Source: Escherichia coli
GTDB taxonomy: Bacteria; Pseudomonadota; Gammaproteobacteria; Enterobacterales; Enterobacteriaceae
Reading direction: 5' to 3' (one strand)
NCBI RefSeq assembly: GCF_044324875.1
Contig: NZ_CP172185.1
Length of the DNA: 64,000 nt
This document shows positions 19,130 to 24,527 of this stretch, piece by piece. Below the pieces are notes generated by a model. That model saw only the letters and a list, made by a program, of their open reading frames with translations. It made no database searches and had not been told where the DNA came from. The position numbers and the translations under genes were made by a program. The number at the start of each line of letters is the position of its first letter. The stretch's first letter is position 1.

Positions 19130-19954
19130 ATGCAACCACTACATGGTAATTGTCTAATTGCGTACGCAAGACATAAATATATTCTCACCATGGTTAATGG
19201 TGAATATCGCTATTTTAATGGCGGTGATCTGGTTTTTGCGGATGCAAGCCAAATTCAAGTGGATAAGTGTGTTGAGAATTTCGTATTAGTTTCAAGAGAC
19301 ACGCTTTCATTATTTCTCCCGATGCTCAAGGAGGAGGCATTAAAACTTCATGCACATAAAAAAGTTCCTGCATTACTCGTTCATCACTGTACCAGAGATA
19401 TTCCTGTTTTTCAGGAAGTTGCGCAACTATCGCAGAATAAGAATCTTCGCTATGCAGAAATGCTACGTAAAAGGGCATTAATCTTTGCGTTGTTATCTGT
19501 TTTTCTTGAGGATACGCAGTTTATACCGTTACTTCTGAACGTGTTGCAACCGAATATGCGAACACGAGTTTGTACGGTCATCAATAATAATATCGCCCAT
19601 GAGTGGACATTAGCCCGAATCGCTAGCGAATTGTTGATGAGTCCAAGCCTGTTAAAGAAAAAATTGCGCGAAGAAGGTACGTCATATTCACAGTTGCTTA
19701 CTGAGTGTAGAATGCAGCGTGCTTTACAACTTATTGTTATATATGGTGTTTCAATTAAGCGAGTTGCAGTATCCTGTGGATATCACAGCGTGTCGTATTT
19801 CATTTACGTTTTTCGAAATTATTATGGGATGACGCCCACAGAGTATCAGGAGCGATCGGCGCAGGAATTACCGAACTGTGGCTCGGCGGCAAGTATGGCT
19901 GCGCAAGGGAATTTTTACGGCACTGACCGTTCTACGGAAGGAATAAGATTATAG
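19130..19954 (+). CDS. gadX: AraC-family acid-resistance regulator GadX
   Basis: 274-aa ORF with C-terminal AraC-type HTH; recognised as GadX with several substitutions relative to my recollection of the K-12 protein. Confidence 0.93.
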   Translation: MQPLHGNCLIAYARHKYILTMVNGEYRYFNGGDLVFADASQIQVDKCVENFVLVSRDTLSLFLPMLKEEALKLHAHKKVPALLVHHCTRDIPVFQEVAQLSQNKNLRYAEMLRKRALIFALLSVFLEDTQFIPLLLNVLQPNMRTRVCTVINNNIAHEWTLARIASELLMSPSLLKKKLREEGTSYSQLLTECRMQRALQLIVIYGVSIKRVAVSCGYHSVSYFIYVFRNYYGMTPTEYQERSAQELPNCGSAASMAAQGNFYGTDRSTEGIRL

Positions 19955-19970
19955 AGTTTTACTCAGACAT

Positions 19971-20076
19971 AAAAAAAACCCGGCATAGGGGACCGGGAAG
20001 AGGATAGTCTGCCGTCTCCAGACTAATAAACCGTTATAACACTCCCTGTTGGCACGGGAAACTTTGTGCTCTCAGT
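19971..20076 (-). ncRNA. gadY: GadY small RNA, antisense to the gadX 3' end
   Basis: minus strand reads actgagagcacaaagtttcccgtgccaacagggagtgttataacgg...cccggtcccctatgccgggtttttttt, matching the GadY sequence I recall, with an intrinsic terminator. Confidence 0.8.
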
Positions 20077-20322
20077 AAGTTAAATATAACTTTTACTGGA
20101 AATAAGATCAGCCATTTTTTTATAAACATAAGCTATACGCTGTGCGAAAATATATTCGTGCTGCATTTACTTATTATCAATTAACTGTTATGCAAAACTA
20201 CTTTGTGGATAAATTTTGGTCCTACCAAATCTGGCAGTTTTTGCGCTAAGAAACAGTCTGGCATCATTTCATTAGTATACTGAAATTGAAATAATCGCAG
20301 TAATGAAATATAAGGGATAGTC

Positions 20323-21051
20323 ATGACTCATGTCTGCTCGGTGATCCTCGTTCGTCGTTCATTCGATATTTATCATGAACAGCAAAAAATATCGTTGCAC
20401 AACGAGAGTATCCTGTTACTGGATAAAAATTTGGCAGACGATTTTACGTTTTGTTCACCGGATACGCGACGACTGGATATCGATGAGCTGACAGTTTGCC
20501 ATTACTTACAAAATATTCGTCAGATACCACGCAATTTAGGGTTACATAGCAAAGACCGTCTGTTAATTAACCAGTCACCCCCCATGCCGCTGGTGACGGC
20601 GATTTTTGATAGTTTCAATGACTCCGGGGTAAATTCGCCGATACTGAGCAAAATGCTCTATCTTTCCTGTTTATCGATGTTTTCTCATAAGAAAGAACTG
20701 ATCCCCTTACTTTTCAATAGTATCAGTACTGTTTCAGGAAAAGTTGAACGCCTTATTAGCTTTGATATCGCCAAACGTTGGTATCTGCGCGATATTGCGG
20801 AAAGAATGTATACCAGCGAGAGTCTAATCAAAAAAAAGTTGCAGGATGAAAATACCTGTTTCAGTAAAATATTACTCGCCTCCAGGATGTCGATGGCCAG
20901 ACGATTACTCGAGTTACGTCAAATTCCTCTGCATACTATTGCGGAAAAATGTGGCTATAGCAGTACATCGTACTTTATAAACACATTTCGACAATATTAT
21001 GGTGTAACGCCACATCAGTTTGCGCAACATTCGCCAGGTACCTTTTCCTGA
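20323..21051 (+). CDS. gadW: AraC-family acid-resistance regulator GadW
   Basis: 242-aa ORF (MTHVCSVIL...), AraC-type HTH; recognised as GadW. Confidence 0.93.
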   Translation: MTHVCSVILVRRSFDIYHEQQKISLHNESILLLDKNLADDFTFCSPDTRRLDIDELTVCHYLQNIRQIPRNLGLHSKDRLLINQSPPMPLVTAIFDSFNDSGVNSPILSKMLYLSCLSMFSHKKELIPLLFNSISTVSGKVERLISFDIAKRWYLRDIAERMYTSESLIKKKLQDENTCFSKILLASRMSMARRLLELRQIPLHTIAEKCGYSSTSYFINTFRQYYGVTPHQFAQHSPGTFS

Positions 21052-21413
21052 CATATTTTGCATTTGAATATTGGTCAGGATCTCACACCTGCTTCATGTG
21101 AAACTCTTCCCTGATGATTTCTGCCGGGCTACCGGCTAGTTCTCTTTCGCAGTTTGCCAGGCGGTATAGGTATTTTCAGGAGGAAAAGACTCGGCATGTT
21201 TGGGATTATTAAGCTGACAATTCATACGATTACGGGAATGTGGGTCAGTATTGTGTTGTTTAAATTGATGACGAATGGCTGGAGTGGTTTCTACTTTCAG
21301 TGCTGTGTACTAAGCCTGGTATTCCTGACGGTTAGCTGGTTGTTGAGTGGTGAATGGTTAGCAGGAAAGAGTAAGGCTGAACCCTCACGTTCAACCTTAC
21401 TCTCATTTACACG

Positions 21414-24400
21414 TTACGCTTTTTTAAAGCGGGCAAAGAGATGTTCCACTACAACGAAAAAGACCGGAACGAAGTAAATTGCCAGCACTGTTGCGGCAAA
21501 CATCCCGCCCATCACGCCGGTACCTACCGCGTTTTGCGCGCCAGAACCGGCACCATGACTGATAACCAGCGGCAGCACGCCGAGAATAAAGGCCAGAGAG
21601 GTCATCAGGATTGGGCGTAAACGCATTCGCGCCGCTTCGATGATCGCCTCTATCGGCGTTTTCCCTTCTTTCTGCATCATCTCAACGGCAAATTCGACAA
21701 TCAGGATGGCGTTTTTGGCGGAAAGCCCGATGGTGGTCAGCAAACCAACCTGGAAGTAGACGTCATTACTTAAGCCGCGTAGATCGGTGGCCAGTAATGC
21801 GCCAACGACGCCTAACGGTACAACCAACATCACCGAGAACGGAATTGACCAGCTCTCATAAAGTGCGGCGAGGGCGAGGAACACCACGACCAGTGAAATG
21901 GCATACAGCGCGGGAGCCTGGTTTGAGGATAACGCTTCCTGATACGACAGTCCGGTCCATGAGTAGCCGACGCCTGCCGGAAGTTTAGCGACCAGGTCTG
22001 CCATAAATTTCATGGCGTCACCGGTACTTTTCCCGGCCGCCGCTTCACCTAAAATCTCCATTGACGGGATGCCGTTGTAGCGTTCCAGTCGCGGTGAACC
22101 ATAGGTCCATTCGGTAGACGAATAGGCAGAAAGCGGTGCCATCGTGCCAGAGGCGTTGCGTACATACCACTGGTTGATGTTATCCGGCAACATACGGAAC
22201 GGCGTGCCTGCCTGGACATACACTTTTTTCACCCGCCCCTGGTTGAGGAAGTCGTTCACGTAGCTGCTGCCGAAGGCGGTGGAAATTGTCTGGTTGATAT
22301 CAGACAGCGCCACACCCATTGCCTCGGCTTTCGCGGCGTTGACGTTCACTTTGAACATCGGTGTATCTTCCAGGCCGTTCGGGCGTACCCCGGTGACTTG
22401 ATTCGGTGATTGCGCTGCCAGTGATAATAGCTCGTTTCGCGCCTGGGTCAGTTTTTCGTGTCCCAGGTTGCCGTTGTCCAGCAGTTCCATATCAAAACCT
22501 GACGCGGTACCCAGTTCAGCCACCGCGGGTAAGTTGAACGGGAAGACGACGGCTTTATTGATACTGCTTAACGCAATCATTGCCCGCTGAATGATCGCGG
22601 TAACCGAGTTTTCCTCACCGACACGTTCAGACCACGGTTTGAGGCTGATAAACGCCAGACCGTTGTTTTGCCCCTGGCCGCTGAAGCCAAAGCCGCCAAC
22701 GGTAAACACCGACTGAACATTATCTTTCTCTTTAGTCAGATAATAATCCGTCACCTGTTGCAGCACTTTCGTGGTGTTAACCATGGTGGCACCGGAAGGT
22801 AACTGCGCGGTGGTCATAAATACCCCCTGATCCTCTTCTGGTAAGAAAGAGGTCGGCGTGCGCAGGAACAGCACCGCCATCCCGGCGCAAATCAGCAGGT
22901 AGACCACCATGTAGCGACCGGTACAACGCAACAGCGAGCGGGTGCTGTCGGTATAGTGCTGAGTTGATTTTTCAAACAGTGTGTTGAAGCGTGCGAACAG
23001 GGCGTTAGGTTTGTGACCACCTTCCGGCGCGGCTTTCAGAATGGTGGCGCACAGGGCAGGGGTCAGGCTCATTGCCACAAATACTGAAAGCAGCATGGAG
23101 GAGATCAGCGTGATGGAGAACTGGCGGTAGATCTCCCCGGTTGCACCGCTCATAAAGGCCATCGGCATAAACACTGCGGAAAGAACAACGGCAATCCCGA
23201 CCAGCGCACGTTGGATCTGCCCCATCGATTTATGCGTCGCTTCCTTCGGCGGTAGCTTATCTTCTGCAATGACACGCTCGACGTTCTCCACCACCACGAT
23301 GGCGTCATCCACCAGTAACCCTATCGCCAGCACCATCCCGAACATAGTTAACGTGTTGATGGTGAAACCGACCGCCGACAAGATCGCAAACGTCCCGAGA
23401 ATAACCACCGGTACGGCAATCGTCGGGATGATTGTGGCACGGAAATTCTGCAAAAACAGATACATGACCAGGAAGACGAGGATGATAGCCTCAACCAGTG
23501 TTTTAAAAACTTCCTGAATAGAAATTTCGATAAACGGCGTGGTGTCGTAAGGATAAACCGTCTTCAGACTTGCGGGGAAATAGGCTGATAAGCGGTTCAG
23601 CTCCTCTTTGACTGCCCGTGAGGTATCCAGGGCGTTTGCTCCGGTAGCCAGTTTGATGGCGATCCCGGCAGCAGGTTTGCCGTTATAGCGCGCCACGGTG
23701 GAATAATCTTCCGCTCCAAGTTCGACGCGGGCGACATCACGCAGCAGCACTTGCGAACCATCTTGCTGAACTTTCAACAGGATTTTGCCAAATTCTTCCG
23801 GCGTTTGCAGACGCGTCTGCACAATGATCGAGGCGTTTAGTTGCTGGTCTGCCGCCTGTGGCATGCCACCCAGTTGACCACCGGAAATCTGGTTGTTTTG
23901 CACCTTAATCTGGGAAATAACATCGGAAGGTACCAGATTGTATTTATTGAGTTTTTGCGGGTCCAGCCAGATACGCATGGCGTACTCGGAACCAAAGAGC
24001 TGTACGCTACCAACGCCCGCGGTACGGCTTAGCGGGTCTTTGATATTAGACGCTACATAGTCCGCGATATCGTACTGGTTGAGGCTGCCGTTATCAGAAA
24101 TAAACGCCGCTACCATCAGGATATTACTGCTCGACTTATCGACGCTAATCCCCTGCTGCTGCACCGCTTCAGGTAATGAAGGCATAGCGAGTTGCAGTTT
24201 ATTTTGCACCTGAACCTGTGCGATATCAGGCGATGTCCCAGTCTCGAAGGTCAGAGTAATAGAGGCATTACCCGCCGCATCACTGGTTGAAGACATGTAC
24301 ATCAGGCCATCAAGCCCATTCATATTTTGCTCAATCACCTGAGTGACCGAGTCTTCTACCGTTTGCGCATCGGCACCTGGATAGGTAGCGCTGATGGTAA

Positions 24401-24527
24401 TGGTCGGTGGCGCAATCTGCGGATACTGCGCAACCGGTAAGTTCATGATTGCCAGACCGCCTGCAAGCATCATAATAATGGCAAGTACCCAGGCAAAAAC
24501 CGGGCGATCAATAAAATAGTTAGCCAT
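21414..24527 (-). CDS. mdtF: RND multidrug efflux pump inner-membrane subunit MdtF
   Basis: 1037-aa ORF, AcrB-like RND transporter; follows mdtE in the same orientation. Confidence 0.95.

Follow-up and report, generated by a model that had tools for sequence, protein, structure and literature searches.

Purifying selection on a small predicted membrane-protein gene between gadW and mdtF in the acid fitness island of Escherichia

The gadW-mdtF gap and its reading frame

The window analyzed here is a stretch of 64,000 nucleotides of Escherichia coli DNA that contains the acid fitness island, with gadX, the small RNA GadY, gadW and mdtF. The gap between gadW and the convergent mdtF measures 362 nt, and a small open reading frame (ORF) starts within it, on the same strand as gadW and with its ATG 145 nt beyond the end of that gene. 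The features to which we refer are the following (positions are those of the window).

19130-19954, plus strand: gadX
19966-20079, minus strand: sRNA GadY, identified by an Rfam match
20323-21051, plus strand: gadW, upstream of the ORF and the likely source of its transcript
21123-21136, plus strand: short G+C hairpin GCCGG-N4-CCGGC with a poor T-run, 3' of gadW; probable weak gadW terminator
21178-21183, plus strand: Shine-Dalgarno sequence AGGAGG, 12 nt before the ATG at 21196 and within the near-invariant block 21171-21198
21196-21477, plus strand: full ORF, 93 codons and stop; sORF15 of Schumacher et al. (2023) and XECs371 of Hücker et al. (2017)
21196-21366, plus strand: conserved core, codons 1-57; two predicted membrane helices joined by the invariant loop TNGWSGFYFQCC
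21367-21413, plus strand: tail codons 58-73, which traverse the mdtF terminator hairpin
21367-21404, minus strand: terminator or stabilizer hairpin of mdtF with a 16-bp stem, called from its folding energy and also present in a terminator scan
21414-21477, plus strand: tail codons 74-93 and stop, antisense to the final 21 codons of mdtF and its stop
21414-24527, minus strand: mdtF, the convergent RND efflux permease gene

An earlier, sequence-only reading of this DNA had reported the AGGAGG, the ATG at 21196, an in-frame TTG at 21154 and a product of about 93 amino acids, and all of these are present in the sequence as claimed. The frame closes with a TAA at 21475-21477, and the product, which begins MFGIIKLTIH, is 93 aa long if read from the ATG and 107 aa if read from the TTG. 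The same reading had described the Shine-Dalgarno sequence as strong; the AGGAGG is there, but it lies 12 nt from the ATG, beyond the E. coli optimum of 5-9 nt, and the description is therefore somewhat overstated. The AGGAGG motif is not enriched in the window (11 occurrences observed, 16 expected), and an ATG-initiated ORF of at least 93 codons arose in 25 of 2000 dinucleotide shuffles of positions 21052-21480 (about 1%). It is conservation, not sequence motifs, that raises this ORF above chance, because block 21171-21198 hardly varies and no indel interrupts the frame across 14 Escherichia genomes (described below).

Kyte-Doolittle hydropathy places two hydrophobic stretches at approximately residues 7-26 and 30-52, and AlphaFold2 models helices at residues 2-26, 31-58 and 65-87, with a pLDDT of 64 that corresponds to modest or low confidence. 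Hydropathy and structure prediction thus agree on the two transmembrane (TM) helices that had been proposed from sequence. The region from residue 53 onwards carries a net charge of +9, and this basic C-terminal tail overlaps the 3' end of mdtF on the opposite strand by 64 nt, again in line with the earlier description. Since the N-terminus is basic and the C-terminus very basic, the positive-inside rule suggests a hairpin with both termini in the cytoplasm and a GWSGFxFxCC turn in the periplasm.

Annotation, published translation and expression

The gap contains no annotated feature in the K-12 reference NC_000913.3 or in 30 RefSeq genomes among the matches listed, while 5408 of 5426 complete E. 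coli genomes carry the region in one piece at no less than 95% identity. Many GenBank and UniProt entries from E. coli and Shigella do contain the exact protein, under the label "hypothetical" or "uncharacterized protein". The claim that the ORF is unannotated consequently holds for RefSeq and for the K-12 reference, but not for GenBank and UniProt, and the ORF also appears in two papers. We also noted an O121 strain with an IS insertion in the ORF.

[quoted passage not shown] 2023, mSystems 8:e01037-23, PMC10746267). Its coordinates in Table S7 of that study are NC_000913.3:3663464-3663745 on the minus strand. Mapping the window to NC_000913.3 recovers the same coordinates and sequence, with R65C as the sole difference in the K-12 protein. 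At pH 4.4 relative to pH 7.6, sORF15 footprints changed by a log2 fold change of 4.21 (about 18-fold, adjusted p 1e-38) and sORF15 RNA by 4.03 (about 16-fold) (PMC10746267). The authors assigned sORF15 to the gadW 3' UTR and stated that the two are co-transcribed, predicted a membrane protein with two TM helices, and speculated on a link to GadC or MdtF (PMC10746267). A Western blot signal was obtained from pBAD24-sORF15::3xFLAG, a construct with the tag after codon 93 and 15 nt of native leader; the protein was expressed from this arabinose-driven plasmid, not from the chromosome, with 1 h of pBAD induction (PMC10746267). The sequence is that of the ORF described here, and the paper does not include an analysis of selection. 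It does list sORF15 homologs of more than 80% identity in Vibrio, Klebsiella, Salmonella and Enterococcus (PMC10746267). Because the searches made here recovered the gene only in Escherichia and Shigella and found none outside them, these records are probably mislabelled or contaminated assemblies.

The other, earlier paper, on E. coli O157:H7 Sakai, detected the same frame by RIBOseq and lists it as XECs371 (Hücker et al. 2017, PLoS One 12:e0184119, PMC5597208). [quoted passage not shown] Its sequence includes all 93 residues, although it is drawn as a 118-aa protein from an upstream non-ATG start, whereas we take the ORF from the ATG at 21196. A literature search returned no later functional study of sORF15 or XECs371, and the sources consulted gave no other data sets on the start site at ATG 21196.

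The ORF is a real gene that has been published twice as a translated reading frame. Ribosome profiling and epitope tagging had both been suggested as checks on it, and published data already answer to each: footprints were reported for sORF15 (PMC10746267) as well as for XECs371 (PMC5597208), and plasmid-borne sORF15 was detected on a FLAG Western blot (PMC10746267). What is new here is the evidence for selection, the ortholog in E. fergusonii, the separation of core and tail, the restriction to Escherichia and the finding that the neighboring sORF14 of the same 2023 study is not conserved.

Comparison of sequences between species points to ATG 21196 as the likely start. We rejected the TTG at 21154, as well as the longer start drawn for XECs371, because the codons upstream of the ATG evolve neutrally, with no protein-level constraint, and the frame further upstream carries indels in other species.

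A search for an ORF-specific promoter gave no sigma-70-like site in 20900-21600. The hairpin at 21123-21136 retains its pairing through G-U-compatible changes, and its 3' arm is deleted in one lineage (L003). Since the gap has no promoter-like site and only this weak hairpin follows gadW, read-through from gadW is the simplest route to expression of the ORF. The RNA of gadW, calculated from rpkm values, rises about 5-fold at pH 4.4, compared with about 16-fold for that of the ORF, and simple co-transcription with gadW may therefore not be the whole story. The mismatch could reflect regulated read-through, differential stability or an unrecognized promoter. We also considered an RNA structure that would hide the Shine-Dalgarno sequence and start codon, in which UCUUCCCUG, located within sORF14, pairs with CAGGAGGAAAAGA and is opened by translation of sORF14. 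This pairing is not supported: it shows no covariation, shuffled sequences equal the observed value, and the folding z-scores are -0.8 and +1.2.

Selection on the core, the E. fergusonii ortholog and the tail

For the analysis of selection we used GadW to search a single genome of each species, which yielded six further Escherichia loci, from a divergent E. coli, three unassigned or cryptic lineages, E. whittamii and E. albertii. Together with the window, K-12 and six diverse E. coli these form a set of 14 sequences, corresponding to about eight independent lineages. All 14, spanning E. coli to E. albertii, keep the frame free of indels and stop codons.

Codons 1-57 overlap no other gene. Over these codons dN/dS relative to the window ranges from 0.06 to 0.19, with dS as high as 0.89 for the other Escherichia species. 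Changes counted by parsimony on a neighbor-joining tree fall at codon positions 1, 2 and 3 in the numbers 22, 12 and 53 (chi-square p 1e-7), and of the codon changes 50 are synonymous versus 32 non-synonymous, against an expectation of approximately 20% synonymous (p about 2e-15). The 144 nt upstream of the ATG, treated in the same way, give 37, 28 and 32 changes by position, and 21 synonymous versus 62 non-synonymous, which is the neutral pattern. All five other frames over codons 1-57 are closed by stops; they are near neutral, except for the opposite-strand "shadow" frame, an expected exception, which contains three stops. Thus dN/dS is well below 1 in the proposed frame only, and no frame-breaking change was found in codons 1-57. 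For comparison, dN/dS is 0.06-0.15 for gadW and 0.02-0.03 for mdtF, so that purifying selection constrains codons 1-57 to about the same degree as gadW and less tightly than mdtF. Conservation of the reading frame had been named as a further check on the ORF, and within Escherichia the frame is intact in this set. Over codons 58-93 selection is inseparable from other constraints.

A profile search over 1.84 billion representative proteins matched only Escherichia variants and fragments and one diverged protein of 54 aa. The latter is encoded in E. fergusonii ATCC 35469 at the equivalent position, between a gadW-like gene and mdtF. Its ORF begins 20 nt after the gadW-like gene (62% identical to GadW), a spacing that fits read-through from gadW, and it precedes a convergent mdtF (93% identical), ending 42 nt short of it. 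There is no Shine-Dalgarno or AGGAGG sequence in front of the E. fergusonii ORF, and a GGCCGG-N4-CCGGCC hairpin is located downstream of its stop codon. The E. fergusonii and E. coli proteins are identical at 21 of 52 residues, including GIIKL and GWSGFxFxCC, and nucleotide identity at the three codon positions is 0.58, 0.79 and 0.23, which is a coding signature. As this diverged ortholog is 54 aa long and stops before mdtF, the sequence comparison indicates that the conserved unit is a two-helix hairpin of about 55 aa with the GWSGFxFxCC loop. We found no homolog outside Escherichia in Pfam, NCBIfam or the profile search (no Pfam or NCBIfam family matched at E <= 10), and no paralogous copies. 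In Rfam only GadY matched, and it is located outside the gadW-mdtF gap.

The C-terminal tail behaves differently from the core. In codons 74-93 the third codon positions of the ORF and of mdtF share the same bases (at coordinates divisible by 3), and all 13 of 13 changes are at these shared positions; none is non-synonymous, and all are silent in both genes. Conservation of codons 74-93 is explained by mdtF and, because the changes are silent in both overlapping genes, is uninformative about a function of the tail. The ORF takes its stop codon from mdtF, where conserved Ile-Tyr codons provide it. Codons 58-73 give a mixed signal, with 13 synonymous and 10 non-synonymous changes. Codons 58-70 run through the mdtF terminator hairpin (-32.1 kcal/mol, z-score -5.7), in which variation preserves pairing of the minus-strand RNA. 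Conservation of the tail is therefore explained by mdtF and its terminator, and the basic tail is lineage-specific. In practical terms, the tail cannot be altered without touching either the mdtF terminator or the mdtF coding sequence.

It had been cautioned that the overlap with mdtF might mean a shorter product or an ORF that is not expressed. This doubt is justified in part. A tag placed after codon 93 was detected, so that all 93 aa, tail included, are made in K-12 from a plasmid; the protein-level constraint that belongs to the ORF itself, however, is confined to about its first 57 codons, and the ortholog of E. fergusonii has 54 aa. Frameshifted database variants (P0032, P0024 with 76 aa and P0039 with 54 aa) were considered as evidence that the tail is dispensable, and rejected as such. 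They are 1-nt deletions in homopolymer runs, and most of their source assemblies also have a fragmented gadW or mdtF. The AAA>AA deletion occurs in 0 of 5143 complete-genome records and the GG>G allele has no match. Since such homopolymer deletions are absent from all complete genomes, the variants are most likely sequencing errors.

Interpretation and comparison with AcrZ and SafA

Taken together, these results make it very probable that the ORF, identical to sORF15 and XECs371, is a genuine protein-coding gene for a small inner-membrane protein restricted to Escherichia. The original proposal of a small two-helix membrane-protein gene is borne out by published translation, by selection on codons 1-57 and by the syntenic ortholog in E. 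fergusonii.

An improbable alternative is that the function resides in the RNA, with the gadW 3' UTR serving as a regulatory or antisense RNA on the 3' end of mdtF and the ORF being incidental or part of a dual-function transcript. Any transcript that completes the ORF must overlap the mdtF mRNA by at least 64 nt, the island already has a 3'-end antisense RNA in GadY, which acts on gadX, and the invariant blocks 21074-21086 and 21171-21198 exceed what a Shine-Dalgarno sequence needs. Constraint on RNA, however, does not produce an excess of change at third codon positions. The leader shows neither covariation nor unusual stability and no Rfam family is present in the gap, and because the E. 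fergusonii ORF stops short of mdtF, the overlap is not a conserved feature. Beside the coding role there may nevertheless be an additional antisense effect on the mdtF mRNA.

We regard as less probable still the explanation that the ORF is translated without function, through chance loading of ribosomes in a long gadW 3' UTR (pervasive translation). Its location in a 3' UTR without a promoter of its own, the long spacing from AGGAGG to ATG, the lack of conservation of sORF14 from the same study and the IS insertion in the O121 strain would all suit such an origin. Pure translational noise is hard to reconcile with the evidence from selection and from the ortholog: change in codons 1-57 is period-3 and biased to synonymous sites next to flanking non-coding DNA that is neutral, the frame is intact in every genome of the set, and the diverged syntenic ortholog in E. 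fergusonii keeps the motif.

Type I toxins are mostly single-helix peptides of less than 60 aa. A peptide of this kind held down by antisense transcription is the least likely of the explanations considered and has little support, for although the protein is small, hydrophobic, membrane-located and stress-induced, with an mRNA that overlaps an antisense transcript, it has two helices and 93 aa, we found neither a dedicated antisense sRNA, nor a known sRNA family in the gap, nor paralogous copies, and after 1 h of pBAD induction its product was detected with no toxicity reported (PMC10746267).

Returning to the ORF as a protein-coding gene, we propose that most of its transcripts would come from gadW by reading through the weak hairpin, so that it would follow the acid and stationary-phase program of gadXW. 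The protein would insert into the membrane as a helical hairpin, with both ends on the cytoplasmic side and the invariant turn on the periplasmic side. The functional unit may be the hairpin of about 55 aa, and the E. coli/E. albertii lineage would have gained its 36-aa basic tail for want of a stop codon ahead of the overlap with mdtF. By analogy with other small membrane proteins we tentatively suggest, as a possibility short of even likelihood, that the protein binds and modulates a larger membrane protein of the acid response, with MdtF, GadC and a sensor kinase as candidates. A more specific form of this idea, which we consider rather unlikely as a whole, is that the 55-aa hairpin is a genus-specific accessory or regulatory subunit that is switched on with GadW at severe acid and tunes the membrane protein to which it is bound. 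Candidate partners for such a subunit would be MdtF, an efflux pump of acid and anaerobic conditions, in an AcrZ-like arrangement, or again GadC or a sensor kinase.

The gene is absent from RefSeq and K-12 annotation although the acid fitness island is among the most-studied loci of E. coli. Selection and the E. fergusonii ortholog make it more than a candidate sORF: it is a gene worth naming and annotating. They also direct mutagenesis away from the tail and towards codons 1-57, which encode the hairpin with its GWSGFxFxCC turn. If the protein does modulate MdtEF or GadC, it would be an extra component of acid resistance and stress-induced efflux.

Two known small membrane proteins offer points of comparison: AcrZ, whose target is AcrB, and SafA, whose target is PhoQ. 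The ORF protein gave no BLASTP alignment to either of them at E <= 100. AcrZ is a small inner-membrane protein tied to the RND pump AcrB, of which MdtF is a homolog, and in one study MdtF co-purified with AcrZ (PMC11539335). AcrZ has 49 aa and one helix, whereas the ORF product has two helices, and acrZ adjoins the mod genes in K-12 and not the pump genes. SafA (B1500) resembles the ORF in its setting, as this small membrane-protein gene is located beside, and on the same strand as, ydeO, which encodes an AraC-family acid regulator. SafA connects EvgAS to PhoQP by binding a sensor kinase. It is a 65-aa single-pass protein whose gene is upstream of the regulator gene, whereas the ORF encodes a predicted two-helix hairpin and is located downstream of gadW.

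Distribution and natural interruption of the 93-aa ORF

A contiguous copy of the region is missing in just 7 of 5415 matching records. In locus L016 (NZ_CP119441.1, E. coli O121) the ORF is split at about 21236, near codon 14, by an IS66 element adjoined by IS1, and this strain is a natural knock-out of the ORF. Near-identical "homologs" have been listed for Vibrio, Klebsiella, Salmonella, Enterococcus or Staphylococcus (PMC10746267 Fig. S9C; PMC5597208 supplementary table). Genome and protein searches did not find the gene outside Escherichia/Shigella, and the listed records from other genera probably stem from assemblies that are contaminated or carry the wrong label.

Neighboring small ORFs and the start region

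Two further small ORFs lie beside the 93-aa ORF:

21098-21139, + strand: sORF14 of Schumacher 2023, GTG start, 13 aa, VKLFPDDFCRATG
21114-21212, + strand: 32-aa ORF (MISAGLPASS...), in another frame than the 93-aa ORF and overlapping its Shine-Dalgarno sequence and start

When compared across Escherichia lineages, conservation of sORF14 is limited to E. coli proper; in the other lineages its frame has lost the stop, is frameshifted or carries GTA in place of GTG, with lengths ranging from 6 to 126 codons. On this comparison, sORF14 probably does not encode a conserved protein. The 32-aa ORF is apparently the one that Hücker 2017 lists as XECs372, matched by length and relative position rather than by sequence; XECs372 was reported as translated, yet was assigned to the class "pseudo" (PMC5597208).

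The consensus fold pairs UCUUCCCUG, located within sORF14 (21105-21113), with CAGGAGGAAAAGA (21177-21189, + strand), which includes the Shine-Dalgarno sequence of the 93-aa ORF, and in the same predicted fold CAUGU possibly pairs with GCAUG at its start codon. The predicted 21105-21113/21177-21189 pairing was supported by neither the covariation test nor the shuffle test.

Flanking repeats and acid induction

Repeat or hairpin elements were identified at both flanking genes:

21046-21052 (TCCTGAC) and 21074-21080 (GTCAGGA), + strand: invariant 7-bp inverted repeat, its 5' arm spanning the gadW stop codon
21367-21404, - strand: mdtF terminator hairpin, very stable, 16-bp stem, z -5.7

The arms of the gadW-end repeat enclose a variable loop of 21 nt, and the 3' arm lies within GGTCAGGATCTC, a non-coding block that does not vary. 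A G-U pair is preserved by one C>U change; since no covariation was seen within 21046-21080, the repeat may represent a stem in the RNA or a site bound by a protein. The U-run after the mdtF hairpin is poor (UCUUUCCUGC). The hairpin carries a compensatory T>C/A>G pair in one lineage (L005), and a change in E. albertii keeps pairing on the minus-strand RNA only.

Within K-12 3663464-3664618, RNA of the 93-aa ORF rises about 16-fold at pH 4.4, as against about 5-fold for gadW (gadW rpkm ~1147 vs 223; PMC10746267 Tables S3, S8). This gap may point to read-through that is regulated, to transcript parts that differ in stability, or to a separate promoter induced by acid.
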